Positions 37,725 through 55,471 of a stretch of 64,000 nucleotides of DNA are shown in pieces. Made by a program: the position numbers and the translations under genes. Within the stretch, counting starts at the first letter, position 1; each line of letters opens with the position of its first letter. Origin of the DNA: Candidatus Falkowbacteria bacterium (lineage in GTDB: Bacteria > Patescibacteriota > Patescibacteriia > Patescibacteriales > UBA12075); assembly GCA_003514005.1 (NCBI GenBank), contig DOSJ01000012.1, positions 26,508 through 90,507 on the forward strand, in the 5' to 3' direction. The notes beneath the pieces are model-generated. The model saw only the letters and a list, made by a program, of their open reading frames with translations. It did no database searches and had not been told where the DNA came from.

Positions 37725-37835
37725 TATATCAGGTACTTAGGTACTTAGGTACTTAGGCAATTAGGATAAAGGGCAATTTTTTTAATCAACCCGCTCCTAT
37801 GCCCTATGCCCTATGCCCTATGCCCTAATTCAAAT
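37725..37835. repeat. Intergenic tandem words (gtacttag x3; cctatgcc x4)
   Basis: ggtacttaggtacttaggtacttaggcaattagg ... cctatgccctatgccctatgccctatgccctaat. The second array overlaps the ORF-track start at 37806. Confidence 0.7.
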
Positions 37836-38303
37836 ATGAGAGGAAAACAAGCACCAAAAAGAAAAATTGAAGGCGATATCAGATACAATGATACTGATGT
37901 AGCTAAATTCATAAACTATATAATGCAACGCGGGAAAAAGACGGTTGCGCAAGGTATTGTTTATGACGCTTTTGATATTATAAAAGAAGATACCAAGCAG
38001 GATCCGCGCCATGTTTTTAATAAAGCTTTGAAAAAAGTATCTCCACTTTTGGAAGTGCGCGGCAAGCGCGTCGGCGGAGCAAATTATCAGATACCATATC
38101 AAGTACGTGGAGAACGTCGCTTTGCTTTGGGCAGTCGTTGGTTGATTGAAGCCGCAAAAGACAGAAAGGGCAAACCAATGAGAAAAAAATTAGCTGACGA
38201 AATTATTGCCGCATCAGCAGGTGAAGGCGCCGCGATGAGAAAGAAAGAAACCGTGCACAAGATGGCGGAATCGAATAGGGCTTTTGCGCATTTTGCCAGA
38301 TAA
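37836..38303 (+). CDS. rpsG: 30S ribosomal protein S7
   Basis: MRGKQAPKRK...FINYIMQRGKKTVAQ...VRGKRVGGANYQIP. The start is set at the Met after the repeat array. Confidence 0.93.
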   Translation: MRGKQAPKRKIEGDIRYNDTDVAKFINYIMQRGKKTVAQGIVYDAFDIIKEDTKQDPRHVFNKALKKVSPLLEVRGKRVGGANYQIPYQVRGERRFALGSRWLIEAAKDRKGKPMRKKLADEIIAASAGEGAAMRKKETVHKMAESNRAFAHFAR

Positions 38304-38329
38304 ATCGAGTAACTGAATATTGTGAAGAT

Positions 38330-38410
38330 AGTAAATAAAAAATTTCTAATGTCTAATTTCTAATTTCTAATTTTTTTAGAAATTAGTAATTATAATTTAG
38401 AAATTTATTA
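38330..38410. repeat. Intergenic word hairpin (tttctaat / attagaaa family)
   Basis: tttctaatgtctaatttctaatttctaatttttttagaaattagtaattataatttagaaatt. Confidence 0.65.
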
Positions 38411-38444
38411 TTTTATAATAATTAATAAAATTTATCATAACTAT

Positions 38445-40523
38445 ATGCCTCGTGAATATTCTTTAGACAAAACTAGAAATATCGGAATTATGGCGCACAT
38501 TGATGCCGGTAAAACCACATTTACAGAGCGTGTGCTTTTTTATACTGGAAAAAAACACAAGATTGGTGAAACACATGACGGCGCCGCGGATATGGATTGG
38601 ATGGAACAGGAAAAAGAACGAGGTATTACGATTACATCAGCCGCGACTACCTGTTTTTGGAAAGATCACCGTATCAACATTATCGATACTCCGGGACACG
38701 TTGATTTTACGGTTGAGGTTGAGCGTTCTTTGCGTGTTTTAGACGGAGCGGTCGCTGTTTTTGACGGTGCCGCCGGCGTAGAGCCGCAATCCGAAACAGT
38801 ATGGCGTCAAGCCGATAAATACCAGGTTCCTCGCTTATGTTTTATCAACAAAATGGATAAGATGGGTGCGGATTATTACATGAGTTTGAAATCGGTGCGT
38901 GAACGTCTTAATTCAAAGGCGGTTGCAATCCAAATCCCGATCGGAGCGGAAGAAACCATGCGTGGCGTAATCGATTTAATCCATCAGAAAGCTTATGAGT
39001 TTAAGGGTGAAAACGGAGAAAAAATAACCGAGGTTGATATCCCGGAAGATATGCTGGGCAAGGTCAAAGAAATGCGCAATGAAATGATCGAAAGAGTTTC
39101 CGAGTGCGATGATGCCGCTATGGAAAAATATTTGAACGGTGAAGAATTAAGCATTGAAGAAATAAAAAAGACAATCCGCAAAGGCGTAATTGCCAATCAG
39201 ATATTTCCGGTTTTAGCCGGAACGGCCTTGCGAAATATCGCGGTGCAATTGGTTTTGGACGCGGTAATCGATTACTTGCCATCACCGCTTGACGTAAAAG
39301 CGATTGAAGCGACCGAGGTTGACGATATTGAAAAGAAAATCGAAGTTCATGCCAGCGATTCCGAACCCTTTGCCGGCTTGGCATTCAAGATCGCGACTGA
39401 TCCATTCGTTGGCAAGCTTTGCTTTGTCCGCGTTTACAGCGGTGTGTTGGAATCAGGGTCTTATGTTTACAATTCATCAACCGGCAAAAAAGAGCGCATC
39501 GGGCGGCTTGTCCGCATGCACGCGAATCACAGGGAAGAAATCAAGGAAGTTTTTGCCGGCGATATTGCTGCGATTATCGGGCTTAAGTCAACGATTACCG
39601 GAAACACTCTTTGTGATGAAAAAAGACCTTTGCTTTTAGAATCGATTATCTTTCCGGAACCGGTTATCAAAATCGCGGTTGAACCGAAAACAAAAGCTGA
39701 TCAGGAAAAAATGGGTATTGCTTTGTCAAAATTGGCGGAAGAAGATCCGACCTTTAGAATCGAAACCGACGAGGAAACCAATCAGACTTTGATTTCCGGT
39801 ATGGGCGAATTACATTTGGATATTATCGTTGACCGCATGAAAAGAGAATTTAAAGTAGAAGCAAATATTGGCAAACCGCAGGTATCATACCGTGAGACAA
39901 TAAAAAATACGGCCGAGGCTGAAGGAAAATATATCAAGCAGTCGGGAGGACGCGGACAATACGGACATTGCTGGATTCGCGTGGAAGCGCAGGAGCCGGG
40001 AGTCGGCAACCAATTCGTTGACGCGATCAAAGGCGGAGTTATCCCGCGCGATTTTGTACCGGCGATTGAAAAGGGTATTAAGGAAGCGACCGACCAAGGC
40101 GTATTGGCCGGCTATCCGATGGTGGATATCAAGGCGACTGTTTTTGACGGCTCTTATCACGAAGTCGATTCATCGGAAGCGTCTTTCAAGATGGCGGCGA
40201 TTTTCGGATTCAAAGATGCTTGCCGCAAAGCCGAGCCTATCATCCTTGAGCCTATCATGAAAGTCGAGGCGGTTACTCCGGAAGAATATATGGGCAACGT
40301 TGTCGGCGATCTTAACGCCAAACGGGGACAGATCGGGCAGATGAGCGATCGCGCGAACAACAAAGTAATCGACGCAAAGGTGCCGTTGGCGGAAATGTTC
40401 GGTTATGCCACTCAGTTGCGTTCGATGACACAGGGTCGTGCCAGCTATACCATGGAATTTGCCTACTACGCGGAAGCGCCGAAATTTGTTGCGGAAAATA
40501 TTGTTAAAAAATCTGGGAAATAG
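38445..40523 (+). CDS. fusA: Elongation factor G
   Basis: [28 protein letters not shown], and full-length domain order. Confidence 0.97.
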
Positions 40524-40582
40524 TTTTAGTTAAGGTGATTAAAAATAGTTATTTATTTAGATAAATGATAGTGGAGTAAAGG

Positions 40583-40684
40583 CTTGAATTAGTTATTATC
40601 GAAGCGAGGACTGTTTGAGTCGCTTCCAAAATAAATAATAAAGAAAAAAGACGAGTTCCACAGCGAGAGAATAACTAATTCAAG
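40583..40684. repeat. 15-bp perfect inverted repeat (cttgaattagttatt / aataactaattcaag) enclosing 72 nt with an inner hairpin
   Basis: Arms at 40583-40597 and 40670-40684. Inner stem gaagcga...tcgcttc at 40601-40626. Confidence 0.6.
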
Positions 40685-40723
40685 TCTTTACGGAACGGGT
40701 TGGTGAGAAACTTTTTTGAGTAT

Positions 40724-40752
40724 TTGACGATTCGACGGTAATCGGTTAAAAT
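40724..40752 (+). promoter_or_regulatory. Candidate promoter (TTGACG-17-TAAAAT)
   Basis: TTGACG at 40724-40729 and TAAAAT at 40747-40752, upstream of the ORF at 40782. Confidence 0.45.
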
Positions 40753-40781
40753 AAAAAATATAAAAATAATTATAAATTTTT

Positions 40782-41267
40782 ATGCAAAGCCAATTACAAA
40801 AAGCCATTGATTTGGTTAGAAAGACCGGCGACCGCTTATTGGTGCTGGACATGGCAAGGCCGGAAAACGCATTTGCGGTCATGTCAATCGACGAATATGA
40901 AAAATTAATGATTGGCAAGAGCGAAGTGCGGGGCTTGACAGAAAATGAATTAGTTGATAAGATAAATCGCGATATCGCTATCTGGAAAAGCGAAAAAGAA
41001 TACAATGAAAATGAGCCGTATCGGGCTTGGCAAGCGCGAAAATATTTAGCGGATATCAGAGAAAAAAAAGACTATATAGACAATTTTGATTTTGATGATA
41101 TAGATGATGAAGACGATTTTGCGGATTTGCCGGATTTTTCTGAGAAATATACGGAAAATCCATCGCAAGCAAACCGAAAAAATCCTTGGGCAATTCCATC
41201 CGATCGCAAAGAAGCGGCTGAAGAAATTATCGAAGAAGACCGCCAGTACCTAGAAGAAATCAGATAA
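40782..41267 (+). CDS. Hypothetical acidic protein inserted between fusA and tuf (weak Phd/YefM-like N-terminus)
   Basis: 161-aa ORF. AIDLVRKTGDRLLVLDMARPENAFAVMSIDEYEKLM weakly resembles antitoxin-fold N-termini. The C-terminus is Asp/Glu-rich. Confidence 0.55.
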   Translation: MQSQLQKAIDLVRKTGDRLLVLDMARPENAFAVMSIDEYEKLMIGKSEVRGLTENELVDKINRDIAIWKSEKEYNENEPYRAWQARKYLADIREKKDYIDNFDFDDIDDEDDFADLPDFSEKYTENPSQANRKNPWAIPSDRKEAAEEIIEEDRQYLEEIR

Positions 41268-41438
41268 AAAATATATCATAAATCAAATATCATAAATTAT
41301 AAATTAATTAAATAAGCTAACGGCTGGTTTCCTGTTAAACAGGATAATAACTCTGGGAATTTTCGATTTACGATTGGCGATTGCAAAAATCGGCAATCGA
41401 AAATCTGAAATTTCTCGGGGGTCGTAAAATCATAAAAC

Positions 41439-42626
41439 ATGGCAGAGAAATTTGAACGCACAAAACCCCATGTCAACGTTGGCACAATCGGCCACGTTGA
41501 TCATGGCAAAACTACCTTGACAGCGGCGATTTTAAAAGTGTTAGCCGCTAACGGCTTAAACGCTTCCAAGAAAGACGTTGATCAAATTGACGCAGCTCCG
41601 GAAGAAAAAGCTAGAGGCATCACCATCGCGACCGCGCACGTTGAATACGAATCAACAAAGCGCCACTACGCGCACGTTGATTGTCCCGGACATGCCGATT
41701 ACGTAAAAAATATGATTACCGGTGCCGCTCAGATGGATGGCGCGATTTTGGTAGTGGCCGCTACTGACGGACCTATGCCTCAAACCAGAGAACACATATT
41801 GTTAGCTCGCCAGGTTGGTGTGCCGAATATCGTAGTGTTTTTGAATAAATGCGACATGGTTGAAGACGCTGAATTAATCGATTTGGTTGAAGAAGAAATC
41901 CGCGATTTGCTTAAGAAATACGAATTTGACGGCGATAATATCAAAATTATCCGCGGTTCAGCTTTGAAGGCTTTGGAAAATCCAACCGGAGAAGAAGCAA
42001 AAGCGATTATGGATCTTATCAGCGCTGTTGATGAATCCATCCCAGAACCGGTTCGTGATTTAGAAAAACCATTCTTACTTCCGATTGAAGATGTATTTTC
42101 AATCGAAGGTCGTGGTACTGTCGTAACCGGCAGAATCGAAAGAGGAGTTATTAAAGTCGGCGAAGAAGTTGAAATCGTCGGTTTGAAAGATACTAAAAAA
42201 ACCGTTGTTACCGGAATCGAAATGTTTAACAAGCAGTTAGACGAAGGTCGTTGCGGAGACAATGCCGGCATTTTATTGCGCGGTACCAAAAAAGACGAAG
42301 TTGAAAGAGGTCAGATTCTTTCCAAACCGGGATCAGTTACTCCTCACACCGAATTTGAAGGACAGGTATATGTTTTGTCGAAAGAAGAAGGCGGACGCCA
42401 CAAACCTTTTTTCAAAGGCTACAAGCCACAATTCTATATCCGTACAACCGATGTTACTGGAGAAGTTGAGTTACCAGAAGGAACTGAGATGGTTATGCCT
42501 GGCGATACAATCACTTTTAAGGTTAAATTGATCAATCCGATTGCTCTTGAAGAAAAACAACGTTTTGCTATCCGCGAAGGCGGAAGAACCGTTGGTGCCG
42601 GAGCTGTTGTCAAGATTATAAAATAA
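41439..42626 (+). CDS. tuf: Elongation factor Tu
   Basis: [22 protein letters not shown], 395 aa. Confidence 0.98.
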
Positions 42627-42633
42627 GCACTTT

Positions 42634-42658
42634 AAGCTCCCTAATTTTTAGGGAGCTT
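42634..42658 (+). terminator. Hairpin after tuf (aagctcccta/tagggagctt)
   Basis: 10-bp perfect stem at 42634-42643 / 42649-42658. The T-run is displaced by about 13 nt, so terminator function is uncertain. Confidence 0.45.
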
Positions 42659-42680
42659 TGTAGTGAGTATTTTTTACATA

Positions 42681-42758
42681 TTTTGTAGTATTTGAATTTT
42701 ATTTGTAGTATTCGAATTATAATTCGAATACTACAAATAAAATTCAAATACTACAAAA
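42681..42758. repeat. 78-bp perfect palindrome (38-bp arms, 2-nt centre)
   Basis: ttttgtagtatttgaattttatttgtagtattcgaatt-at-aattcgaatactacaaataaaattcaaatactacaaaa. The arms are exact reverse complements, checked base by base. Confidence 0.9.
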
Positions 42759-42800
42759 ATATTTATACTGAATATTAAATTATAAAACTAAATTTAAATC

Positions 42801-43189: not shown

Positions 43190-43218
43190 TTGCATTTTTT
43201 TAAAAAAGAATATATACT
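43190..43218 (+). promoter_or_regulatory. Candidate internal promoter (TTGCAT-17-TATACT) in the 334-bp S10-L3 spacer
   Basis: TTGCAT at 43190-43195 and TATACT at 43213-43218. Confidence 0.4.
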
Positions 43219-43500
43219 ATAAAAGTTATTAGTAAAAAAGTAGAGAAAAAAGTTGATTATTCTTATAACTCCATATTTCAAAGGGATAGTGTAAGATAAA
43301 TTGATTTTTTTTTGAAAGGAAATAATCCGACAAAAACGAACTGAAAAAATATAAACAAAACTTTAAAGTTTTATTTTGTGTTCGCTGGATCTTTCTTGAA
43401 GTCCGGCTTTTGTTTTAGAAAGATAACCTTCACCCCGACCCCTCTCCTAGTCAGGAGAGAGAGGAAATGGAATTAAAAAATATTTTGATATAAGTTCAAT

Positions 43501-44310
43501 ATGAAATATATATTAGGAAAAAAATTAGAAATGACCCAAGTTTGGCAAGGAGAAAAGGTTGTTGCGGTTACCAAGGTTCAGACCGGCGCATGCGTAATTA
43601 CTCAGGTCAAATCTGAAACAACAGACGGCTACAAGGCAGTGCAAGTCGGTTTTGGCGAACGAAAAGCAAAAAATATCAAAAAACCGCAGATCGGACATAA
43701 TAAAGGTTTGGGAAATTTCGCAAAAGTGAAAGAATTCCGTATTGAGACAGATTCTATTGATGGTCTAAAACGCGGCGATACCATTAGCCTGGAAAGTTTC
43801 GCGATTGGTGATAACATTCAGATAACCGCAACCAGCAAAGGTAAAGGCTTTCAAGGCGTTGTAAAACGACACGGTTTCCATGGCTCAAAAAAAACCCATG
43901 GTAATAAAGACCAGGAAAGAATGCCTGGCGCAGCCGGAGCAACCGGTCCTGCGCACGTTTTCAAGGGCACCAAGGGCGGAGGCAGAATGGGCAACGACCA
44001 AGTTACGGTAAAAAATTTAGAAGTAATTGAAATTGATTTTGAAAATAATATCATATACGTAAAAGGAGCGGTACCGGGAGCCAGAAACGGACTAGTCATG
44101 ATTTCCGGAGCAGGGGAATTAAAAGTAACAAGCGTAGCAGAAGTGGTAGATGAAAAGTTAGAAGTTAGAAGTGAGAAGGTAGAAGATAAAAGCGAGAAGG
44201 CAGAAGATAAAAGTGAGAAGAAAGAAGAGCTTGAAACTCCGGAACAAGTCGAGAAGGAAGTGATTGAAGCAAAAGAAAAAGTAGACGAGAAAAAAAGCGA
44301 AACTGTGTAA
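43501..44310 (+). CDS. rplC: 50S ribosomal protein L3 with low-complexity C-terminal extension
   Basis: ILGKKLEMTQVW...GKGFQGVVKRHGF. The tail is EKLEVRSEKVEDKSEKAEDKSEKKEE. Confidence 0.95.
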   Translation: MKYILGKKLEMTQVWQGEKVVAVTKVQTGACVITQVKSETTDGYKAVQVGFGERKAKNIKKPQIGHNKGLGNFAKVKEFRIETDSIDGLKRGDTISLESFAIGDNIQITATSKGKGFQGVVKRHGFHGSKKTHGNKDQERMPGAAGATGPAHVFKGTKGGGRMGNDQVTVKNLEVIEIDFENNIIYVKGAVPGARNGLVMISGAGELKVTSVAEVVDEKLEVRSEKVEDKSEKAEDKSEKKEELETPEQVEKEVIEAKEKVDEKKSETV

Positions 44311-44367
44311 ACATTTCAGCGTGAATCCGCGTATAGATCCGCGTGAATCCGCGATTAAAAAAATAGT

Positions 44368-45078
44368 ATGGCAATTAAAATAAATATATACAATCAAAAG
44401 GCGGAAAATGTCGGACAGATGGAAATTTCAAATAAAGTTCTTAATGTCGAGATAAACGAAGGTTTGGTTCATCAGGCTATGGTAGCGCAGATGGCGAATG
44501 AACGCCAAGTTTTGGCGCACACCAAAGATCGTTCCGAGGTTTCCGGGGGAGGCAAAAAACCGTGGCGCCAAAAAGGTACAGGCCGCGCACGCTCAGGGTC
44601 TAGCCGTTCACCGATTTGGATTGGCGGCGGAATCACATTTGGACCACGCAGTGATCGGAATTTCAAAAAAGACCTTAATCGAAAAATGAAACAGAAAGCG
44701 CTATGCATGGTTATGACTGACAAAGTAAAAGAAGATAATTTTATCGTTTTAGATAAATTTGAAATAAAAGAATACAAAACCAAGCAGGTTAATGAAATTT
44801 TGAAAGCATTGGAAAAAACCAGAAAACCGGTAGAAACAAGTCCAGCAAAAGAGAAAAAATCTGAAAAAAAATCTGAAAAACCCGCTGTAAAAAAATTAAA
44901 ACGCAGTATACTAGTGATTAATGATGAAAAAACAAGCGAAGTGAAGTATTCATTCAGAAATTTAAGCGGAGTAAAGATGATAAACTTGGAAAATATCAAT
45001 ATTGTCGATTTATTAAAATATAAGGAATTGATAATTACCCAAGAAGGATTAAAGAAGATCGAAGAGCGCTATAAATAA
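44368..45078 (+). CDS. rplD: 50S ribosomal protein L4
   Basis: GGGKKPWRQKGTGRARSGSSRSPIWIGGGITFGP. Confidence 0.95.
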   Translation: MAIKINIYNQKAENVGQMEISNKVLNVEINEGLVHQAMVAQMANERQVLAHTKDRSEVSGGGKKPWRQKGTGRARSGSSRSPIWIGGGITFGPRSDRNFKKDLNRKMKQKALCMVMTDKVKEDNFIVLDKFEIKEYKTKQVNEILKALEKTRKPVETSPAKEKKSEKKSEKPAVKKLKRSILVINDEKTSEVKYSFRNLSGVKMINLENINIVDLLKYKELIITQEGLKKIEERYK

Positions 45079-45112: not shown

Positions 45113-45574
45113 ATGAAGATATTCAATAAGGAAAAAACTGAAAATAAAGAAAAGAAACCAAGCGTTAAAAAGACTGCCAAACCTTTGGATACCGCAAAAA
45201 CCAGCATGAAAGATTTGTATGCTGGTGATGTGCCAAAGTTGGTTGTTGGCGGCGCTAAGAAAGACGCGAAAGGCAAAACCGTAAAACGGGGCAATGCTTA
45301 TCGTATCTTGGTCAAACCACTGATTACCGAGAAGGCATCGCATATGGGCGCGATAAATAAATATTTTTTCGCGGTTTCCAATAAAGCAAATAAGATTGAA
45401 ATAACAGAAGCAGTATTTGAGACATACGGCATCAAACCGACTGCCGTGAATATCATTAATTTGCTTGGCAAACAGAAGCGTAGTGGCAGAATCAGTGGAA
45501 AAAGAAAGGATTGGAAAAAAGCGATAGTCACTTTACCAAAAGGACAAACTATAAATTTATACGAAGGAGTTTAA
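45113..45574 (+). CDS. rplW: 50S ribosomal protein L23 (long N-terminal extension; start uncertain)
   Basis: ILVKPLITEKAS...YFFAVSNKANKIEI...VNIIN. Confidence 0.9.
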   Translation: MKIFNKEKTENKEKKPSVKKTAKPLDTAKTSMKDLYAGDVPKLVVGGAKKDAKGKTVKRGNAYRILVKPLITEKASHMGAINKYFFAVSNKANKIEITEAVFETYGIKPTAVNIINLLGKQKRSGRISGKRKDWKKAIVTLPKGQTINLYEGV

Positions 45575-45672
45575 TAATTTTCGATTTCCGATTTTCGCAT
45601 GCCTGCCGGCAGGCAGGATTTCCGATTTTTTTAAAAATCGGCATTCGACATTCGGCAATCGACATTTAAAAA
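45575..45672. repeat. Intergenic word hairpin (cgattttcg / cgaaaatcg family) with a gcctgccggcaggc core
   Basis: ttttcgatttccgattttcgcatgcctgccggcaggcaggatttccgattttt...aaaatcggcattcgacattcggcaatcgacatt. Confidence 0.6.
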
Positions 45673-46515: not shown

Positions 46516-46609
46516 TTAATTAGTTAATTAGTTAATTAGTTAATTAGTTTGAAGATAGTGAAAAAGAAAAGCATTTTAAACACTAATCACTAATTAACTA
46601 ATCACTAAC
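46513..46609. repeat. Intergenic word hairpin (ttagttaattag family)
   Basis: taattaattagttaattagttaattagttaattagtt ... cactaatcactaattaactaatcactaac. Confidence 0.65.
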
Positions 46610-46611
46610 AT

Positions 46612-46893: not shown

Positions 46894-46973
46894 ATATATT
46901 TACGATTTCCGATTTCCGATTTCCGAATAAATAATAATTCGAAAATCGACAATCGGCATTCGACATTAGAAAA
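46894..46973. repeat. Intergenic word hairpin (cgatttccg / cgaaaatcg family)
   Basis: tacgatttccgatttccgatttccgaataaataataattcgaaaatcgacaatcggcattcgacatt. Confidence 0.6.
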
Positions 46974-47546
46974 ATGGAAGTTAAAGCATCAGCAAAAACT
47001 ATAAAAATAGCTCCGCGCAAGACTAGACTGCTTGCCGGTCTTATTCGCGGCTTAACAGCGGAAAAAGCCGGAGATCAATTGCGTTTTTCCGGAAAGAAGG
47101 CCGCATCACCGATGATCAAGTTGCTTAATTCGGCGGTGGCGAACGCGGAAAATAATTTTGAATTGAAAAAAGATAACTTGTTTGTAAGAGAAATAAGAGT
47201 TGATGAGGGTGTAACTATGAAACGATGGGCGCCGAAAGCCAGAGGAAGAGCGACTCCACTCCGAAAAAGAACCAGCCACATCCATATCACTTTGGGAGAA
47301 CTGGTAGATAGCGGAAAAGTTGCCGGCAAAAAAGGGAAAATCGAGGCTCCGATCAAGCTGGATGCCAGAGTGAAAGAAGCGGAAGGCGTAAAGATCACCC
47401 CGAAAAAAGACACTGCCAAAGAGACGATAAAAAAAGAAGGCGAAACAAAGAAAATAATCGATCCGCGCGGAGAAGGCAGAGGCAAGAATACGAAGATTGA
47501 GGGCAAAGGTTTTGCTAGTCGGATATTTAGAAGAAAGTCAGGTTAA
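46974..47546 (+). CDS. rplV: 50S ribosomal protein L22 with ~70-aa basic C-terminal extension
   Basis: KIAPRKTRLLAGLIRG...ANAENN...RWAPKARGRA. Confidence 0.94.
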   Translation: MEVKASAKTIKIAPRKTRLLAGLIRGLTAEKAGDQLRFSGKKAASPMIKLLNSAVANAENNFELKKDNLFVREIRVDEGVTMKRWAPKARGRATPLRKRTSHIHITLGELVDSGKVAGKKGKIEAPIKLDARVKEAEGVKITPKKDTAKETIKKEGETKKIIDPRGEGRGKNTKIEGKGFASRIFRRKSG

Positions 47547-47640
47547 AGTTATTAGTTAGTTAGTGATTAGTTGATTAGGAAGGCGTGTGATTGTATAAAA
47601 ATTTCTGCCTGATTAACTAATTACTAATTAACATAATGTT
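47547..47640. repeat. Intergenic word hairpin (ttagttgattag family)
   Basis: attagttagttagtgattagttgattagg ... cctgattaactaattactaattaac. Confidence 0.6.
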
Positions 47641-49206: not shown

Positions 49207-49497
49207 ATGGTAAAAAAAGCAAACGACAAAAAAATAATTGAAAAAAAGACTGAAACAGTCAAGGCGGTTTTGATTAGAAAAAAGTTTCAAGGCGTGGTAG
49301 CGAGCGATAAGAATGATAAAACAATTGTGGTAAATGTTGATAGCGTAAAGATTCATCCGAAATACAAAAAACGCTTTACCAGAAGCAAGAAGTATAAAGT
49401 TCATGATGAAAAAAACCAATTTAAGATAGGTGATAAGGTAGTTTTCGAAGAATGCCGTCCAATATCCAAAGATAAAAGATGGAGAGTAATTTATTAA
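49207..49497 (+). CDS. rpsQ: 30S ribosomal protein S17
   Basis: FQGVVASDKNDKTIVVNVDSVKIHPKYKKRF...YKVHDE. Confidence 0.93.
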   Translation: MVKKANDKKIIEKKTETVKAVLIRKKFQGVVASDKNDKTIVVNVDSVKIHPKYKKRFTRSKKYKVHDEKNQFKIGDKVVFEECRPISKDKRWRVIY

Positions 49498-49571
49498 TTT
49501 ATGATTTATGATTTTTGATTTACGATTTATAAAAATCGAAAATCGGAAATCTGAAATCGAAAATCCGAAAG
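49498..49571. repeat. Intergenic word hairpin (gatttatgattt / aaatcgaaaatc family)
   Basis: ttatgatttatgatttttgatttacgatttataaaaatcgaaaatcggaaatctgaaatcgaaaatccgaaag. Confidence 0.6.
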
Positions 49572-49943: not shown

Positions 49944-50029
49944 TTTTCGATTGACGATTGACGATTTTCGATTATTGAATATATATAAAATATTTGTGCT
50001 ATTTGTAGCAATTTGTAATTTGTAATATT

Positions 50030-50353
50030 ATGAATATAAAAAAAGGCGACAAAGTTAAAATAATTGCCGGAAAAGATAAAGGAAAGAGCGGAAAAGTTTT
50101 GCAAGTTTTCCCGGAAAAAAATCGCGTAAGCGTTGAGGGTTTGAATTTGCTTGTAAAACATATGCGTCCGCGCAGACAAGGTGAAAAAGGTCAAAGAATT
50201 GAATTTCCCGCACCACTTGAAGCATCCAATTTAATGATAGAATGTCCGAAATGCGGCAAGCCATCCCGAATCGGCGCGCAGATAGTAAAGGCAGAAGGCA
50301 AGAAAGACAAAAAATTCCGCGAATGCAAAAAATGTAAACAGATTATAGACTAG
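50030..50353 (+). CDS. rplX: 50S ribosomal protein L24 with a Cys4 (zinc-ribbon-like) C-terminal region
   Basis: IKKGDKVKIIAGKDKGKSGKVLQV (KOW), then CPKCGK...(26 aa)...CKKCKQ. Confidence 0.93.
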   Translation: MNIKKGDKVKIIAGKDKGKSGKVLQVFPEKNRVSVEGLNLLVKHMRPRRQGEKGQRIEFPAPLEASNLMIECPKCGKPSRIGAQIVKAEGKKDKKFRECKKCKQIID

Positions 50354-50429
50354 CATTTAGCCAGTAGTATTTAGCGAATTACAATTTTCGCTTAAAAGCT
50401 ACCCGCTACCCGCTACTAGCTAATTATAT

Positions 50430-50981: not shown

Positions 50982-51016
50982 AACTAACGAATTAAAAATT
51001 ATTAATTTATTATCAT

Positions 51017-51202: not shown

Positions 51203-51265
51203 TGAACACAGATTTCACAAATTTTAAACAGATTAACACAAAAAAATAACTAAGTATTTAAAAAT

Positions 51266-51679: not shown

Positions 51680-51760
51680 TGATTAGTAATTAGTGAATTA
51701 GGATTATTTTAACCCTCTAATTAACTAATCAACTAATTAACTGACAACAGATAATTAAGC
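51680..51760. repeat. Intergenic word hairpin (ttagtgattag / ctaattaacta family)
   Basis: ttagtgattagtaattagtgaattagg ... cctctaattaactaatcaactaattaactg. Confidence 0.6.
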
Positions 51761-51812
51761 ATAAATTAAAAAATAAACTAGATATAAATTAACAGTTTCA
51801 AATACAAAAAAT

Positions 51813-52352
51813 ATGTCAAGATTAGGAAAATTACCAGTCGAATTAAATGCCGGTACTCAAGCGAAAATTGAGAAGGGTTTTATTATAGTAAAAGGGCCAA
51901 AGGGCGAGTTGAAGCAGAAAATGCATGAATTGGTTGATATCCAGATTAGTGAAAAAGAAATTTTAGTTGATGTTAAGAACAAGAAAAGCAAAGACGAGCG
52001 CGCCTTGTGGGGATTGTATCGCAGTTTGGTGTTCAATATGGTCGCGGGCGTTAATACCGGTTTTGAGAAAAAGCTGGAAGTTAACGGCGTCGGTTACAGG
52101 GTGGCCTTGGCTGGAAACAAGCTTAATCTGACTTTGGGTTTTTCCCATCCGGTAGAATATGTTTTGCCAGAAGGCATCAGTGGATTAGTCGAGGCCAATG
52201 TTATCACTATCAAGGGAATAGACAAACAGCTTGTAGGTGAGGTCGCGGCCAATATCAGAAAAATCAAAAAACCGGAACCGTATAAAGGCAAGGGTATTAA
52301 ATATATTGATGAAGTGATCAGAAGAAAAGAAGGCAAGACTGCCGCTAAATAA
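51813..52352 (+). CDS. rplF: 50S ribosomal protein L6
   Basis: MSRLGKLPV...GVGYRV...[10 protein letters not shown]. Confidence 0.96.
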
Positions 52353-52369
52353 TTTTTAAAGTTTTATAT

Positions 52370-52732
52370 ATGAACAAAGAGAAAACAAAAAGAATAAAAC
52401 AAGCTGTTAGAAAGCGAAGAATTAGAGCAAAAATTTCCGGCACGAATGAATGCCCACGTTTGAATGTGTTTAAATCCAATACCGGCTTATTTTTGCAATT
52501 GATTGACGATGCAAAAGGCGTTACTTTGGCAAGCGCCAGCAGCAAGGAAGTAAAGGAAAAAGCGAAAGGCATGAAAAAAACCGAGCTATCAATGCTTTTG
52601 GGAAAAGAATTTGCTGAAAAGATAAAAGCATTAAAAATCGAAAGAATCGTATTTGATCGCGGCGGAAACAGATATCATGGACGGGTCAAGGCTGTGGCCG
52701 ATGGCTTGCGTGAGGGTGGTTTGTCTTTTTAA
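52370..52732 (+). CDS. rplR: 50S ribosomal protein L18
   Basis: [12 protein letters not shown]...RL.VF.SN......FDRGG..YHGRVKA.ADG.REGGL.F. Confidence 0.95.
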
Positions 52733-52816
52733 TTTCTAATTTCAAAATTATAATTTCTAAAAATAAGATTCAATTTAGGCATTATAATTTAGAAATTAGA
52801 AATTGTTAATATATTA
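52733..52816. repeat. Intergenic word hairpin (atttctaa / ttagaaat family)
   Basis: tttaatttctaatttcaaaattataatttctaaaaataagattcaatttaggcattataatttagaaattagaaatt. Confidence 0.6.
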
Positions 52817-52825
52817 TTGTTACAT

Positions 52826-53515
52826 ATGACAGAGGAAAAAAAACAATTAAAAACCGAGAAAGTAGAAACAAAGGTTGAAACTAAATCTGATGTTAAGGCT
52901 GGTACTGCGGAAACAAAGGGCGATACAAATCAATCCGTTTATGCTAAAAAAAGGGCTGAGAAAGGTGGCGGTGCTCGAAAGAATTTTGGCAGAAAAACCG
53001 AGAAAGTTCCGGAAGAGTTTGAGCAGCAAATTGTTGATTTGGCCAGAGTTACCCGCGTTATGGCAGGCGGAAAACGCATGCGTTTTCGAGCTTGTGTCGC
53101 AATAGGCGACAAGAAAGGACGCGTTAGTCTTGGCATTGCCAAGGGCGCTGACGTGACAATCGCCGTAACCAAGGCTGTAACTAATGCAAAGAAAAAAATA
53201 ACCATCGTTCCGATTGTCAATGGCACAATTCCGCATGAAATATTTTGGAAAACCGGAGCCGCTCGCATCATGCTTAAACCGGCACGACGCGGACGCGGTG
53301 TAATCGCGGGCGGAGCAATCCGCATTCTGCTTCGATTGGCAGGAATTCAAAACGTTACAAGCAAGAATTTGGGAACCAGTAATAAGGTAAACGTTGCCAA
53401 ATGCACGATTGAAGCTTTGGAAAATCTGAAAAAGAGCGATAAGCCAAAAAGCGAAAAGAAGGCGGAAGAAGTAAAGGTGGTATTAGATACTGAGAAAAAG
53501 GAAAAAAGCGCGTAA
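52826..53515 (+). CDS. rpsE: 30S ribosomal protein S5 with N- and C-terminal extensions
   Basis: QQIVDLARVTRVMAGGKRMRFRACVAIGDKKGRVSLGIAKG...GRGVIAGGAIR. ATG at 52826. Confidence 0.94.
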   Translation: MTEEKKQLKTEKVETKVETKSDVKAGTAETKGDTNQSVYAKKRAEKGGGARKNFGRKTEKVPEEFEQQIVDLARVTRVMAGGKRMRFRACVAIGDKKGRVSLGIAKGADVTIAVTKAVTNAKKKITIVPIVNGTIPHEIFWKTGAARIMLKPARRGRGVIAGGAIRILLRLAGIQNVTSKNLGTSNKVNVAKCTIEALENLKKSDKPKSEKKAEEVKVVLDTEKKEKSA

Positions 53516-53547
53516 ACAGTTAAATAAAGAATTTTGAAAATAACAAT

Positions 53548-54039
53548 ATGTCATTATCACAACATAAAATAAAAGCAGAGAGCGGTTCGCAGAAAAGCAA
53601 AAAAAGAGTCGGCCGTGGCAATGCGTCCGGACACGGTACGTATAGTACCAGAGGTTTGAAAGGCCAGAAATCCCGTTCCGGCGTCAGCAACCTAAAAAGA
53701 TTGGGTATGCGCCAATTGCTTTTAAAGACTCCGAAAAAACGCGGTTTCACTTCTCTGCAGGAAAAATCTCCGATTGTCGGTTTGGATAATATCAATCTAG
53801 CCTACAAAGACGGCGAAACAGTAACCGTAAAAGATTTGTTTGAAAAAGGTTTGATTGCGACTCCGAAATTGGGCGCGAAAATTCTTGGCAATGGCCAACT
53901 GACTGTTTCAAACCTAACTTTTGAAGGCACAAAAGTCAGCAAGAGCGCGAAAGAACAGATTGACAAGACAAAAGGAAAGATAATCATGAAAAAGAAGGTA
54001 AATAAAGCCGTAAAAAAATCAAAAAAAAGCGAGAAATAA
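53548..54039 (+). CDS. rplO: 50S ribosomal protein L15 (follows S5 directly; no L30 gene between them)
   Basis: KRVGRGNASGHGTYSTRGLKGQKSRSG. Only 32 nt separate it from the rpsE stop. Confidence 0.95.
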   Translation: MSLSQHKIKAESGSQKSKKRVGRGNASGHGTYSTRGLKGQKSRSGVSNLKRLGMRQLLLKTPKKRGFTSLQEKSPIVGLDNINLAYKDGETVTVKDLFEKGLIATPKLGAKILGNGQLTVSNLTFEGTKVSKSAKEQIDKTKGKIIMKKKVNKAVKKSKKSEK

Positions 54040-54132
54040 TCAATTTTCAATAATCGATTTTCTTTGAATGACAATAGTTTGAAAATTAAAAAATTAAAAA
54101 TTCATTGAAAATTAAAAATTGAAAATTAAAAA
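54040..54132. repeat. Intergenic word repeats (ttgaaaattaaaaatt family)
   Basis: gtttgaaaattaaaaaattaaaaattcattgaaaattaaaaattgaaaattaaaaatt. Confidence 0.6.
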
Positions 54133-54141
54133 TTGATTCCT

Positions 54142-55413
54142 ATGCTAGAAAAAATTCTTCAAATTTGGAAAGTCCGCGATTTAAGAAACAAGATTCTTTT
54201 TGTACTCGGAATGCTTGTTATTTTTCGTTTTGCCGCGCATATTCCCGTACCGGGCGTTAATGTGGAGGCTTTGCAGAAATATTTCGCATCCAATCAGATT
54301 ATGGGACTTCTGAATATTTTTTCCGGCGGTAGTATGCAGAATTTTTCTATCGTTATGATGGGTATTGCTCCCTATATTACCTCCTCGATTATTTTCCAAT
54401 TGCTCGGAATGATTATTCCAGCTTTGGAAGAGATGCAAAAAGAAGAATCCGGACGCCAGAAAATAAATATGTGGACGCGCTGGTTGACCGTGCCTTTGGC
54501 TTTTTTACAGGCTTTCGGCATGATTACGATTTTGCGTAATTCATCCGCGGAAATCCTAAGCGATGTCAGCAGGATAGATTTTCTTATGATGTTGACGATA
54601 ATAACAGCCGGTACGATTTTTTTGATGTGGATTGGCGAACTCATATCCGAGAAGAAAATCGGCAACGGCATATCGCTTTTGATTTTTGCCGGCATCGTAT
54701 CCGGCTTGCCCCAAGCTGTCCAGCAGATGGCGGCGCAGTATGACCCTTCCCAGCTTTTCCTTTTGATCGGCTTTGTCGCGATTGCGGTCGTAACCGTTGT
54801 CGGTGTAGTTATCATAACCGAAGGGCAGAGGAATATACCCGTGCAATATGCAAAACAGATTCGCGGCAACCGTATGTTCGGCGGCACAACTACGCATCTG
54901 CCTTTGCGCGTAAACATGGCTGGAGTTATCCCGATAATTTTTGCTATTTCCGTAGTCTTGTTTCCGCCGATGATCGCGCAATTCTTTATCAAGGCGCGAA
55001 CCGCTTGGCTGGCAGCCGGCGCGGAAAAAGTTATTACGCTTTTTAATAACCAGCTTTTTTACGGAATTGCCTATTTTTTACTGGTTTTTCTTTTTACATT
55101 TTTTTATACTGAAGTTATTTTTCACCCGGATCAGATCGCAGAAAATTTACAGAAACAAGGTGGATTTATTCCCGGCATTCGTCCCGGACGGCACACAAGC
55201 GAGTACTTGGCCAATACCACTTATAAGATAATTTTTGTCGGCGCGCTTTTTCTCGGCATTATTGCCATACTGCCATTGGTAATGAAAGCATTCACCGGCG
55301 TTCAATCGCTTGCTATCGGCGGCACCAGCCTCCTGATCGTGGTAGCAGTTGTTATTGAAACCGTTAAACAGATTGAATCGCAATTGACTATGCGGGAGTA
55401 CGAGGGGATGTAG
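54142..55413 (+). CDS. secY: Preprotein translocase subunit SecY
   Basis: ELRNKILFVLGMLVIFRFAAHIPVPG, GI.PYITSSII.QLL, 10-TM layout. ATG at 54142. Confidence 0.96.
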   Translation: MLEKILQIWKVRDLRNKILFVLGMLVIFRFAAHIPVPGVNVEALQKYFASNQIMGLLNIFSGGSMQNFSIVMMGIAPYITSSIIFQLLGMIIPALEEMQKEESGRQKINMWTRWLTVPLAFLQAFGMITILRNSSAEILSDVSRIDFLMMLTIITAGTIFLMWIGELISEKKIGNGISLLIFAGIVSGLPQAVQQMAAQYDPSQLFLLIGFVAIAVVTVVGVVIITEGQRNIPVQYAKQIRGNRMFGGTTTHLPLRVNMAGVIPIIFAISVVLFPPMIAQFFIKARTAWLAAGAEKVITLFNNQLFYGIAYFLLVFLFTFFYTEVIFHPDQIAENLQKQGGFIPGIRPGRHTSEYLANTTYKIIFVGALFLGIIAILPLVMKAFTGVQSLAIGGTSLLIVVAVVIETVKQIESQLTMREYEGM

Positions 55414-55471
55414 GAATTTGGGGATTTACGATTGCCGATTTACGATTGCCGATTTAGGATTTTAGATTTAT

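Follow-up and report, generated by a model that had tools for sequence, protein, structure and literature searches.

Many spacers of this ribosomal gene cluster hold inverted repeats built from short tandem words. Are these RNA signals placed at particular gene junctions, or do they have another origin? The first-pass annotation saw an inverted repeat in nearly all spacers and read them as a system of positioned RNA hairpins. We analysed the window, that is the whole stretch of 64,000 nucleotides, together with loci of related genomes. Our reading, with a probability of roughly 0.6, is that the spacers hold several families of REP/REPIN/MITE-like miniature palindromic elements, dispersed across the intergenic regions of this Patescibacteria genome and its relatives.

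Hairpins at the ribosomal junctions

When folded, the hairpins are far more stable than shuffled controls: 12 of the 25 junctions from rpsL to secY contain one of 16-36 bp with z <= -4. This criterion applies to the hairpin segment folded alone, and some whole-spacer values are weaker; for rpsH-rplF they are -3.3 in one run and -1.9 in another. Four junctions (rpsL-rpsG, rplC-rplD, rplN-rplX and downstream of secY) carry tandem words with an unclear complementary arm, and at nine there is no word element (fusA-orf161, rpsJ-rplC, rplD-rplW, rpsC-rplP, rplP-rpmC, rpmC-rpsQ, rplE-rpsN, rplF-rplR and rpsE-rplO). At rpsN-rpsH only a weak repeat of about 10 nt is seen. The tandem words noted in the first pass are in place, while "almost every" spacer was too generous.

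The hairpins end 3-81 nt before the next ATG, a looser spacing than the 5-40 nt first described. The regularity is tighter on the other side, where 9 of the 12 begin at most 10 nt past the upstream stop codon. A second, independent assembly (JGI 3300025309) has exactly these spacers, which excludes an assembly artefact. As had been proposed, Shine-Dalgarno sequences are effectively missing from these genes: 3 of 57 starts are preceded by an SD-like 4-mer, compared with 17% of random 20-mers.

In 11 of the 12 hairpins the arms are periodic words of 7-8 nt. The CTAA-core family is found at rpsG-fusA (38344..38402; (TTTCTAA)n / (TTAGAAA)n; 23 bp, z -6.8), with period 7 in both arms according to TRF, and at rplR-rpsE (52730..52805; TTTCTAA ... 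ATTATAATTTAGAAATTAGAAATT; 30 bp, z -7.3), where the palindrome overlaps the rplR stop codon. At rplB-rpsS (46520..46608; (TTAATTAG)x4.2 / (CTAATnAn)n; 32 bp, z -5.0) TRF gives period 8 with 100% matches, and the element begins 4 nt past the stop codon and ends 3 nt ahead of the ATG. Word matches place rplV-rpsC (47555..47632; 30 bp, z -6.6) in the TTAGTnAn family and rpsH-rplF (51680..51731; 21 bp, z -4.2), which begins at the stop codon, in the TTAGTnAn / CTAATnAn family.

The CGATTnn palindrome at rplW-rplB (45581..45662; z -7.1, both arms period 7) begins 6 nt past the stop codon, and a GC-rich palindrome (CCTGCCGGCAGG) is nested in its 5' arm. At rpsS-rplV (46903..46962; (CGATTTC)x3 / (nnAATCG)n; 20 bp, z -6.5, period-7 score 0.95) the stem consists of 5-6-bp helices, and the mismatches between them fall at the variable word positions. 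The array at rpsQ-rplN (49497..49564; (TGATTTA)n / (AAATCGn)n; 28 bp, z -7.3, period 7 at 0.88/0.84) includes the rpsQ stop codon. The rplX-rplE hairpin (50346..50422; 25 bp, z -4.6) has (GCTACCC)x2.7 in its 3' arm by TRF. The rplO-secY hairpin (54042..54127; 22 bp, z -4.1), with (AATTTTC)-type words opposite (GAAAATT, AAAAATT)n, belongs to one word family with the element at 7327-7445.

Upstream of tuf, the orf161-tuf hairpin of CGATTnn / nnAATCG words (41351..41420, plus strand; 29 bp, z -5.6) lengthens helix P2 of a conserved leader at about 41319-41428. In 13 genomes the closing stem of this leader, ACGGCU/GGGCCGU, is kept, with GC/GU/AU covariation; helix P2 is short in most relatives and CGATT-lengthened in the window and in L096.

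The exception to the 7-8-nt words is tuf-rpsJ (42682..42757), a perfect palindrome of 36 bp made of two 20-nt units (TTTGTAGTATTYGAAT...), with dG -45.9 and z -19.7. Further copies of its family lie at 12553-12622 and 58755-58770, and a copy upstream of rpsL in L014 is 93% identical over 43 nt. A canonical terminator-like hairpin is located upstream of the palindrome, at about 42634-42659.

Among the junctions with an unclear second arm, rpsL-rpsG (37731..37827) has two TRF arrays, (AGGTACTT)x4.4 and (CCTATGC)x4.6, the second overlapping the annotated rpsG start. Only the TAGG/CCTA core is common to them, and with periods of 8 and 7 the arrays fall out of register and pair weakly (fold z only -1.9 to -2.8). 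TRF further finds one-armed arrays, (GCGTGAATCC)x3.3 at rplC-rplD (44319..44353), where the fold is not significant, and (CGATTGA)x3.7 at rplN-rplX (49948..50026), which is followed by TTTGTA-type words and forms no significant hairpin. After secY lies (GATTTACGATTGCC)x2.8 (55423..55470; TRF and word matches), with a canonical intrinsic terminator (55472-55504) directly 3' of it.

Word families and elements outside the cluster

The recurrence of word families, already noted in the first pass, is highly non-random. CGATTNNCGATT has 14 matches (0.45 expected), TTAGTNNNTTAG 30 (0.34 expected) and TTTGTAGTATTYGAAT, allowing up to 2 mismatches, 9 (0.24 expected); no shuffle reached any of these counts. 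TRF finds 20 period-7 arrays compared with 2.0 in shuffles, and 10 period-8 arrays compared with 3.2. The same canonical words are common to different arrays 165 times, against 50±6 when letters are shuffled within words. Period-7 arrays number 31 per 100 kb in the window; the clade has 27, other Patescibacteria-like loci have 16 and outgroups 4.5.

The elements are non-coding palindromes of about 50-170 bp. Their arms are short arrays of 7-8-nt words, in which a core of 4-5 nt (TTAG/CTAA, CGATT/AATCG, TCAA/TTGA or TAGG/CCTA) is conserved and 2-3 positions vary. The polarity X...rc(X) is constant within a family: all loci of the CGATT, TTAG and TTTGTAG families have word(+) followed by word(-), never the reverse.

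Word elements are not special to the ribosomal cluster. Equivalent ones include (TTTTCAA)n / (TTGAATA)n at 7327..7445 (43 bp, z -6.4), a copy of the TTTGTAGTATTYGAAT family at 12553..12623 (word matches and folding), (AAGTnAA)n / (ACTTTTA)n at 17652..17729 (30 bp, z -8.2) and (AATATTC)n / (ATTGAAT)n at 36381..36442 (z -6.8). Two more, found by TRF and word matches, show that arm copy numbers vary independently of each other. At 18050..18212, (TAGTTAATTAGGGAT)x7.7 is followed by (CTAATTAA)x3.2, with arms of 116 and 26 nt. At 34072..34206, (TAGTTAAT)x3.4 precedes (AACTAATC)x11.9, and the arms are strongly unbalanced (3.4 vs 11.9 word copies over 34076-34206).

Shared segments in other genomes

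Comparing the window spacers with the fetched loci gives 183 short-blastn matches; shuffled spacers give 1. The longest exact matches to L096, L091 and L012 are 33, 32 and 31 nt, all between intergenic elements at non-orthologous junctions. In coding DNA of the same comparisons the longest is at most 23 nt, and uS3 is about 69% identical. The 33 nt start at 38375 (rpsG-fusA) and recur at the rpsE-rplO junction of L096 (16331), with 32 nt in L091. Similarly, 24 nt of the rplR-rpsE palindrome are identical in L096 and L091 at a different junction, 31 nt of 18050..18212 match L012 at 1738, 26 nt of 17652..17729 match the rpsQ-rplN junction of L002 (6207), and 36381..36442 is 92.7% identical to L010 17461-17501 over 41 nt. 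These alignments show near-identical copies at non-orthologous sites of distantly related genomes.

Some words are generic: the 20-mer (TTAGTTAA)2.5 is found, as one-armed arrays, in 98 viral contigs. Shared words by themselves thus count for little as evidence of common descent, and the argument rests on the longer, non-periodic segments in common. The loops are wholly different among copies of one family, which suits palindromes regrown locally as well as it suits copying.

Elements can also nest within each other or extend helices already present, as in a nested insertion at L096 10700-10920 that is absent from L091.

Occupancy and turnover among relatives

A system of positioned hairpins was the earlier proposal, and occupancy speaks against it. 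Across 19 junctions in 23 clade genomes hairpin occupancy is homogeneous (chi-square p=0.92, permutation p=0.83), with 13.8% in relatives at window-filled junctions vs 13.5% at window-empty ones. Junction occupancy is thus random.

Further, elements are gained, lost and replaced quickly. Genome pairs 88-98% identical in DNA differ by clean presence/absence or replacement of whole elements. In the pair L014 and L015 (97.6%) one rplW-rplB spacer measures 16 nt and the other 112 nt; only L015 has a word hairpin there, which starts at the stop codon, and in the same genome the adjoining rplD-rplW junction carries a paralogous copy. L007 and L087 (94%) differ by a CGATT hairpin found only in L087 and by a 90-nt indel in rpsG-fusA. 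In L012 vs L096 (90%), rpmC-rpsQ measures 75 nt, a perfect word hairpin, vs 26 nt, and rplP-rpmC 233 vs 16 nt; the majority of spacers cannot be aligned. L089 and L090 (87%) differ at several junctions in whether a GC-rich hairpin family occurs there. Added together, the spacers from rplC to secY amount to 1386 nt in the window and, across relatives, to between 148 and 3612 nt. Since several relatives manage with spacers a few nucleotides long, the elements are dispensable.

The first-pass annotation had itself named missing positional conservation among related genomes as grounds for rejecting its reading, and this is what the comparison shows. Together with the turnover of whole elements and the compact spacers of some relatives, it leaves a conserved RNA punctuation or insulation system unsupported. 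Stem mismatches show no significant sense-RNA bias (G·T 60 vs A·C 46, p=0.21; T·T 32 vs A·A 25). The word hairpins are not terminators: none is among the sites of a terminator scan, which gave 19 sites vs 20.5 expected.

Some copies may nevertheless have gained a function. L012 and L096 also have a CGATT-family hairpin at rpsQ-rplN, and between these two genomes 93 of 97 positions of that spacer are identical, better kept than the surrounding DNA.

Evolution by word slippage, also suggested earlier, has left signs in the unequal arms and in the CCG and CTG word order, which is permuted between L012 and L096. Slippage is not fast on the timescale separating the two assemblies of this species, since no array differs in copy number between them.

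Proposed spread and tolerance of the elements

If the elements are mobile, the copied unit would be the whole palindrome, spreading in a REP/REPIN- or MITE-like manner via a trans-acting enzyme; alternatively, ectopic template switching or recombination between word arrays could spread it. Slipped-strand mispairing would lengthen or shorten the arms, and intrastrand (quasipalindrome) template switching would keep the two arms alike. Among the scanned ORFs of the 64-kb window, all but four small ones, there is no transposase, RAYT or IS200/IS605-like gene, and filled vs empty sites show no clear target-site duplication or defined element termini.

Elements would survive mainly just 3' of stop codons. 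With words rich in stop codons and a period that three does not divide, they presumably cannot be read through. For REPs, most sites are likewise found downstream of coding regions; transcription is probable for many of them, and they are believed to move as inverted doublets (PMC3733652, PMC3116915). Within operons they are probably tolerated because the lack of a U-tract would spare transcription from termination, and because an A-rich unstructured leader would usually be left before the next SD-less start codon.

Co-transcribed elements would fold as AU-rich hairpins of 16-36 bp, which may happen to shield upstream 3' ends or become targets of RNase III. Such protection or cleavage would be a side effect and not the reason for their presence; any effect at the RNA level would be secondary. 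The word elements are probably mobile DNA with a fast turnover rather than conserved RNA punctuation, and the ribosomal operons merely provide many junctions as sites for them.

Word hairpins at the gene junctions

The ribosomal cluster has the gene order rpsL-rpsG-fusA-orf161-tuf-rpsJ, followed by a 334-nt promoter-bearing spacer and by rplC through secY, all on the + strand; it has no L30, and its S14 is the zinc-type form. The GC is about 40% in the window and about 20% in the spacers of the cluster. The first-pass annotation described these spacers as inverted repeats built from short tandem words, and the sequences match that description. However, its statement that almost every spacer is filled in this way is too strong: a hairpin of 16-36 bp with periodic-word arms is found at 12 of the 25 junctions from rpsL to secY, while four junctions have arrays without a convincing partner arm and nine have none. 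The hairpins were also said to end 5-40 nt before the next ATG, but the observed distance ranges from 3 to 81 nt. The tighter rule is at the upstream side, where 9 of the 12 start at most 10 nt after the stop codon, sometimes taking in the stop codon itself.

The reported recurrence of word families is clearly above chance: CGATTNNCGATT has 14 matches where 0.45 are expected, TTAGTNNNTTAG has 30 against 0.34 and TTTGTAGTATTYGAAT, with at most 2 mismatches, 9 against 0.24. Tandem Repeats Finder detects 20 non-redundant period-7 arrays in the window and 2.0 in locally shuffled sequence; for period 8 the numbers are 10 and 3.2. The junction hairpins are also far more stable than their dinucleotide shuffles, with segment z-scores from -4 to -20. 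Five or more families are represented by 2-6 loci apiece in the 64 kb, many more than chance would give. Further, the same families are found beside unrelated genes outside the ribosomal cluster, at 7327, 12553, 17652, 18050, 34072 and 36381; such elements are not peculiar to that cluster.

A second independent assembly (JGI 3300025309) has exactly the same spacers as the window, so the repeats are not artefacts. The NCBI copy that was compared, LBUW01000006.1 (GCA_000992765.1), is identical to the window across the 20.3 kb checked. An exact-protein look-up leads to the same species only, with seven substitutions clustered in rplD. Over 20 kb these substitutions, all within 9 nt (44501-44509), are the sole differences between the NCBI and JGI copies, and they look like a single multi-base (template-switch-like) event, not independent SNPs. 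Arm-length change was examined in close pairs among relatives, the same-species copy having zero spacer differences.

By uS3 similarity, the window is placed in the Patescibacteria, or candidate phyla radiation (CPR). The nearest species representatives in this comparison are labelled Parcubacteria or Falkowbacteria and have 67-81% amino-acid identity; scans of genome and metagenome contigs gave no relative closer than 81%. The genes had been described as lacking Shine-Dalgarno sequences, and such a motif is indeed present upstream of 3 of 57 starts, against 17% of random 20-mers, while the sequence before the starts is A-rich. Such starts fit elements that persist only where the initiation region stays open, which does not imply that the elements are needed.

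Anatomy of the elements

A family word is 7-8 nt long; its core is conserved and 2-3 of its positions vary, as in CGATT+NN, TTAG+TNAN, NNN+CTAA, and TCAA/TTGA within T-rich words. The words found in arrays are TTAGTTAA, CGATTnn, TTTCTAA, AATTTTC, GGTACTTA, CCTATGC and GCTACCC, and there are at least six unrelated cores in this one genome. Because of the variable positions the stems are often runs of 4-6 bp broken by small symmetric mismatches; perfect stems are few, for instance the 36-bp palindrome at 42682-42757. The arms can be strongly unequal, with 3.4 versus 11.9 copies at 34076-34206 and 116 versus 26 nt at 18050-18212, so that much of an array may have no pairing partner.

The polarity is fixed. 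At every CGATT, TTAG and TTTGTAG locus the word on the + strand comes first and its complement second (X...rc(X)), and the loop sequences are unrelated among copies. Elements can also be nested: a GC-rich palindrome breaks the 5' arm at 45581-45662, and an arm in L096 (loci labelled with L are ribosomal loci fetched from other genomes, mostly relatives) holds a GC-rich hairpin that is absent from L091. GC-rich dispersed palindromes of a second kind (GTCATTCCCGC...GCGGGAATGAC) recur among clade genomes. They are located at 11995-12020 and 32855-32940 in the window, at 8868-8900 in L001, in rplR-rpsE of L014 and L015, between which the internal length differs, and in rplO-secY of L090.

In the orf161-tuf spacer, CGATT words extend the second helix (P2) of a leader that is conserved in the clade, and the same helix and word family are found in L096. 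STRR arrays lengthen a helix in the RNase P RNA of heterocystous cyanobacteria in a like manner. The leader is located directly upstream of tuf (41319-41428 in the window; 3391-3460 in L001, 3656-3724 in L005, 4150-4216 in L010, and in others) and was found in about 17 clade genomes. Its closing stem, ACGGCU...GGGCCGU, has one pair covarying GC/GU/AU and encloses two hairpins that co-vary by eye; MAFFT with RNAalifold recovered the closing stem only, and the length-variable inner helices were compared by eye. The leader has zero Rfam matches and may be a new cis-regulatory or processing element for EF-Tu.

Coding DNA, too, takes up word arrays whose length is a multiple of three. A GAAGTTA array with a 21-nt super-unit lies in frame in the C-terminal tail of uL3 (44139-44228), and the same array is in frame at 18820-18896 in a UvrC-like ORF (18227-19672). 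The two genes are unrelated, and the arrays encode K/E-rich 7-residue repeats, ...EKLEVRSEKVEDKSEKAEDKSEK... and KKLEVRSKKLEVESKKLDARSKKL. The uL3 array has a 23-nt exact match in L096 coding DNA (16782). At rpsG (37796-37836), the start in the NCBI record (37806) falls within a CCTATGC x4.6 array; the ATG at 37836 (MRGKQAPKRK...), which is called in the JGI copy, is more likely to be the start.

Other features of the locus

A sigma-70-like promoter (TTGCAT, 18 nt, TATACT) is found at about 43190-43225 in the rpsJ-rplC spacer. It is kept in relatives, with 93% identity over 42 nt in L010 and similar sequence in L001, L005 and L008, so rplC-secY are probably transcribed separately from rpsL-rpsJ, with a long leader after the promoter. 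The 161-aa ORF between fusA and tuf (40782-41267) is clade-specific; its position is kept across the clade at 37-62% identity, and it has zero Pfam or NCBIfam matches. Lineage-specific extensions rich in K, E and A are present at the N-terminus of uL23 (45113-45574; about 60 aa), the C-terminus of uL22 (46974-47546; about 80 aa) and the N-terminus of uS5 (52817-53515; about 65 aa).

Downstream of secY (55549-58731) we find not adk-map-infA but a 100-aa ORF, an AbiEii-family nucleotidyltransferase (toxin-like) gene and a 746-aa CobT_C/vWA-like protein. At 21017-25876 there are three neighbouring paralogous AAA_14/DUF4143 ATPase genes, one of them set apart by an Lcl_C-domain ORF, and the trio adjoins a pair of nucleotidyltransferase (Polbeta/NTP_transf_2) genes that resembles a toxin-antitoxin module.

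The window also contains a complete diversity-generating retroelement at 59.2-63.1 kb (59209-63060). The 3' end of an AAA_5-domain ORF (59209-61287) is repeated 353 nt downstream with 91% identity: the VR is at 61165-61270 and the TR at 61518-61623, and all 10 of the 10 mismatches between them are at adenines of the downstream (template) copy. The RT (RVT_1) is at 62515-63060. A second, paralogous target ORF (63064-64000), 74-84% identical to the target gene, runs off the window end.

Spacers and hairpins in related genomes

Orthologous genes were mapped in 34 related loci. Summed over the 19 spacers from rplC to secY, the window has 1386 nt, the compact relatives (L019, L004, L103, L011, L017 and L006) 148-390 nt and L096 3612 nt. 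Many relatives have the same kind of word hairpins, with words that are partly shared and partly different. Per 100 kb, the window has 31 period-7 arrays and the clade 27; other Patescibacteria-like loci have 16 and outgroups 4.5. Heptamer arrays of the GAAAATT/AAAAATT type are also found in or near Bacteroidota ribosomal clusters (L060, L136, L147, L154 and L162, Prevotella-like), where they match the window spacers at 7330 and 54040 over up to 30/30 nt; Bacteroidota make little use of Shine-Dalgarno motifs.

Hairpin occupancy is even across the 19 junctions in 23 non-redundant clade genomes (chi-square p=0.92; within-genome permutation p=0.83; the all-genome folding used a reduced number of shuffles). 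A junction with a hairpin in the window has one in 13.8% of cases in the other genomes, and a junction empty in the window in 13.5%. The first-pass annotation had proposed a system of RNA hairpins and had named missing positional conservation as a result that would refute it; among the 23 clade genomes there is no such conservation.

Close pairs of genomes differ in their elements. In L014 and L015, at 97.6% DNA identity, the rplW-rplB spacer is 16 nt versus 112 nt. The extra DNA in L015 is a word hairpin that begins at the stop codon and has a paralogous copy in the adjacent rplD-rplW spacer, which L014 lacks. The comparison of filled and empty site shows an insertion at the stop codon with AT-rich flanks and no clear duplication. 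Between L007 and L087 (94%) a CGATT hairpin is found in L087 only, and rpsG-fusA has a 90-nt indel. At 90% identity, L012 and L096 have rpmC-rpsQ spacers of 75 nt (a perfect word hairpin) versus 26 nt and rplP-rpmC spacers of 233 versus 16 nt, and most of their other spacers are unalignable. In their rpsQ-rplN spacer, 93 of 97 positions are conserved, and the four differences permute CCG and CTG words. Finally, L089 and L090 (87%) differ at several junctions in whether they carry a GC-rich hairpin family. It follows that small palindromes generally colonise such junctions in this clade; AT-rich elements built from words are the prevalent form in the genome of the window.

Function at the RNA level

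Intercistronic structures can direct cleavage and leave a stabilising 3' hairpin, as is the case for the RNase III hairpins in the early mRNA of phage T7 and for tRNA punctuation in mitochondrial transcripts. The model of the first-pass annotation would work in this way; however, those sites are positionally conserved, while the positions of the window elements are not.

Since a palindrome reads identically on either strand, a strand can be recognised from its imperfections only. The hairpins were folded without G·U pairs, and opposed bases were then counted in the symmetric internal loops. The window has 24 G·T versus 16 A·C, which is not significant; in 83 hairpin spacers of the clade there are 60 G·T versus 46 A·C (p=0.21) and 32 T·T versus 25 A·A. 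The bias runs in the sense-RNA direction but is not significant. An Rfam gathering search of the window gave zero matches, and a scan for tRNA and tmRNA found nothing. The one structure that is conserved among relatives is the scaffold of the tuf leader, which is extended by words. By stem length, taken as at least about 20 near-continuous bp, 11 of the 12 predicted stems could be RNase III sites.

Selected mRNA stems, as proposed in the first-pass annotation, would be sites for RNase III or other processing, stabilisers of the 3' end of the upstream cistron, or insulators through which the A-rich initiation region of the next gene, which lacks a Shine-Dalgarno motif, stays free of structure. 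Several observations agree with such a role: the stems of 16-36 bp are far beyond shuffle stability and have no U-tracts, nine of twelve start within 10 nt of a stop codon, an A-rich leader is usually left, and the genes lack Shine-Dalgarno motifs. One hairpin belongs to the conserved tuf leader, the L012/L096 spacer is conserved at 93 of 97 positions, and the sense strand has more G·T than A·C and more T·T than A·A, though not significantly. We also count in its favour that REPs have reportedly been hypothesised to act as mRNA stabilisers (PMC3733652). However, positional conservation is zero, near-identical genomes differ in presence or absence, relatives with spacers of 2-20 nt manage without the elements, and the mismatch spectrum is statistically strand-symmetric. 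Further, the arms can be so unequal that much of an array is unpairable, one-armed arrays are common, and variable word positions are often mismatched and not compensated. Selection for a function in the RNA is therefore unlikely; mRNA punctuation is not supported as the reason for the existence of the elements, while incidental effects on mRNA stability or processing are possible.

That the hairpins are unconventional terminators or attenuators within the operons is hardly credible, even though stable hairpins right behind stop codons would suit such a role. The word hairpins are AT-rich, have neither a T-run nor a U-tract in the transcript, and none appears in a terminator scan. Canonical GC-rich, T-tailed sites exist separately, at about 42634-42659 after tuf and at 55472-55504 after secY, and a dozen stops inside essential ribosomal operons would be implausible.

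Dispersal of element sequences

A short-blastn search of the window spacers against the fetched loci gives 183 matches, while shuffled spacers give 1. The longest exact matches to L096, L091 and L012 are 33, 32 and 31 nt, and all are pieces of elements at non-orthologous junctions: the rpsG-fusA element of the window matches rpsE-rplO in L096 and rpsC-rplP in L091. In the highly conserved ribosomal coding DNA of the same genome pairs no exact match exceeds 23 nt, and the uS3 identity is only about 69%. The shared segments are more than plain periodic sequence: their word variants follow one order (TTAGAAA-TTAGTAA-TTATAAT-TTAGAAA). Single-linkage clustering of words at Hamming distance 1 chained nearly all AT-rich words, and exact canonical words were used instead: arrays share such words 165 times, versus 50±6 after within-word letter shuffling, a threefold difference.

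The TTAGTTAA 20-mer is found in 98 viral contigs, and its inverted partner in 1 of these 98. The word is thus generic in viral contigs and a weak marker of common descent; it is the palindromic arrangement, not the word, that is the distinctive feature of the clade. In a scan of viral contigs, the 23-mer of the CTAA family was absent.

Quasipalindrome template switching is an established mutational mechanism. The elements could be a local by-product of mutation, with no dispersal, if, in an AT-rich genome, slippage made the 7-8-nt arrays and this switching mirrored them in place; the words would then recur because only stop-rich, AT-rich ones survive between genes. The unequal arms and unrelated loops agree with this, as do the TTAGTTAA arrays that arise in many unrelated AT-rich viral genomes and the absence of a transposase from the scanned window ORFs. 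It is also in line with the work of Mrazek (2007), as summarised in PMC4679880 and PMC4692102, where heptamers are reportedly the commonest long SSR unit in many bacteria and polymerase slippage is proposed as the cause. What makes a purely local origin improbable is that identical non-periodic segments of 24-33 nt occur with the same word-variant order at non-orthologous junctions, in genomes where uS3 is about 69% identical. Further, the paralogues at neighbouring junctions of L015 are missing in L014, the polarity is uniform within each family, and the viral TTAGTTAA arrays are palindromic in only 1 of 98 cases, so inversion is no automatic consequence of the word.

Comparison with known repeat systems

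The REP/BIME/REPIN sequences of Proteobacteria, mobilised by RAYT, are also families of small imperfect palindromes that are extragenic, mostly just downstream of coding regions and within operons; their inverted doublets form long hairpins, their abundance differs strongly among close relatives, and they are probably co-transcribed (PMC3116915, PMC3733652). The window likewise has multi-copy families of extragenic palindromes, with copies in related genomes too, arranged as inverted doublets of constant polarity (CGATT, TTAG and TTTGTAG; z -4 to -20). In contrast to the fixed REP unit of 20-40 nt, the arms here are variable-copy arrays of 7-8-nt words, the elements are AT-rich and the host belongs to the Patescibacteria. 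REPs end on one side in a GTAG or CGTC tag that is not paired (PMC3733652). None was found in the element sequences, where the GTAG of the TTTGTAG family pairs with CTAC, and Pfam and NCBIfam scans of the ORFs of the 64-kb window, four small ORFs excluded, revealed no transposase, RAYT included.

MITE-like sequences such as Correia/NEMIS in Neisseria, ERIC in enterobacteria and RUP/BOX in pneumococcus are non-autonomous inverted repeats between operon genes as well. When transcribed, such palindromes form hairpins that RNase III or RNase E can process, which alters mRNA stability. They have defined lengths, terminal inverted repeats and target-site duplications, whereas the arms of the window elements are variable and show no recognisable duplication. 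Inverted arms are present, and no parent insertion sequence for a MITE-like origin was seen in the window. NEMIS and ERIC have been named as comparable short palindromic repeats (PMC3116915).

STRR and other heptanucleotide repeats are tandem 7-nt words as well, over-represented and intergenic, including in ribosomal operons; they are found in lineages with weak Shine-Dalgarno usage, and their length varies among relatives (PMC4679880, PMC4692102, bioRxiv 10.1101/2022.06.06.494920). The window arrays belong to this general type, i.e. 7-nt (5-11-nt) units in tandem beyond chance and mainly intergenic, at 31 versus 4.5 per 100 kb in outgroups. They are not the cyanobacterial STRR heptamers or the TAACTGA repeats, whose hosts are Beggiatoaceae, Cyanobacteria and Bacteroidetes: TAACTGA is not among the window arrays. 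The known heptamer repeats are mainly direct arrays (169 direct sets versus one indirect in the Maribeggiatoa genome) and are often directly upstream of start codons, while the typical unit in the window is an inverted pair of arrays whose hairpin abuts the upstream stop, with several coexisting word families and other word sequences. Going by its title, cited in PMC2858038, Vioque 1997 places STRR arrays inside the RNase P RNA gene of heterocystous cyanobacteria.

TAACTGA repeats adjoin start codons in ribosomal operons without ribosome-binding sites (PMC4679880), and Nostoc heptamers affect expression (bioRxiv 10.1101/2022.06.06.494920). By analogy with both, the window arrays might be binding sites, in which units of 7-8 nt with a 4-5-nt core are read by a DNA-binding or nucleoid protein, or by an S1, cold-shock or CsrA-like RNA binder that acts on Shine-Dalgarno-less translation, as proposed for the TAACTGA repeats. 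The conserved core with variable flanks and the Shine-Dalgarno-less starts agree with this. Nevertheless, protein binding is very unlikely as the explanation, given at least six unrelated cores in one genome, arrays that adjoin the upstream stop codon and not the downstream start, random occupancy across junctions and genomes, and relatives that dispense with the elements.

Two other array types were considered and set aside. TIGR arrays, which are Tas-associated and known from CPR and phages, have units of about 36 nt with dual spacers, next to a Nop-domain tas gene (PMC12045711); the window has short arrays of period 7-8 nt that are scattered over gene junctions, and a Nop-domain gene is absent from its scanned ORFs. 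A CRISPR-like reading does not agree with a period of 7-8 nt without spacers. Literature searches found no descriptions of such elements in Patescibacteria, while both parent phenomena, heptamer repeats and REP-type palindromes, are already known elsewhere.

Origin and significance

The observations are best fitted by families of miniature palindromic repeats that behave like REP/REPIN or MITE elements. This reading follows from their dispersal, constant polarity, placement downstream of genes, co-transcription and a load that differs strongly between close relatives. What sets them apart is that their arms consist of heptamer or octamer words in tandem, which recalls cyanobacterial STRR and other heptamer repeats (PMC3116915, PMC3733652, PMC4679880, PMC4692102). 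The arm lengths change by slippage, which the unequal arms and the word permutations show indirectly. The shared segments and the paralogous neighbours would be due to palindromes copied as a whole, or to ectopic template switching from array to array, although scans of the window showed no enzyme for this step. Quasipalindrome template switching would keep the arms alike without selection.

It is possible, though rather doubtful, that these repeats form an undescribed class of self-propagating CPR hairpin elements, with slippage-prone arms, spread between genera and homing to stop-proximal or loop sites. Their targets would be DNA close to stop codons or existing hairpin loops, helices of structured RNAs among them. 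Their mobility would depend on an unrecognised ssDNA/HUH-type enzyme or on template switching during replication. Such elements would also seed low-complexity segments in proteins, compare the GAAGTTA array in uL3 and in the UvrC-like protein.

CPR bacteria are regarded as having small, streamlined genomes, and the S10/spc cluster ranks with the most densely packed and best conserved loci of bacteria. Here this cluster is riddled with palindromes of fast turnover, and its rplC-secY spacers vary from 148 to 3612 nt among relatives. The repeat-element activity is intense, and the architecture is a hybrid that links heptamer tandems of the STRR type with palindromes of the REP/REPIN type, both of which are poorly understood. 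The natural filled and empty sites are a ready set for studying how such elements originate, and the elements could serve as strain markers in CPR populations. Without comparative evidence, even striking intergenic hairpins in operons should not be taken for regulatory RNAs. A mobilising enzyme, if there is one, would be new to this phylum, and if the elements do propagate themselves they would contribute greatly to sequence turnover in genomes that are streamlined in other respects.
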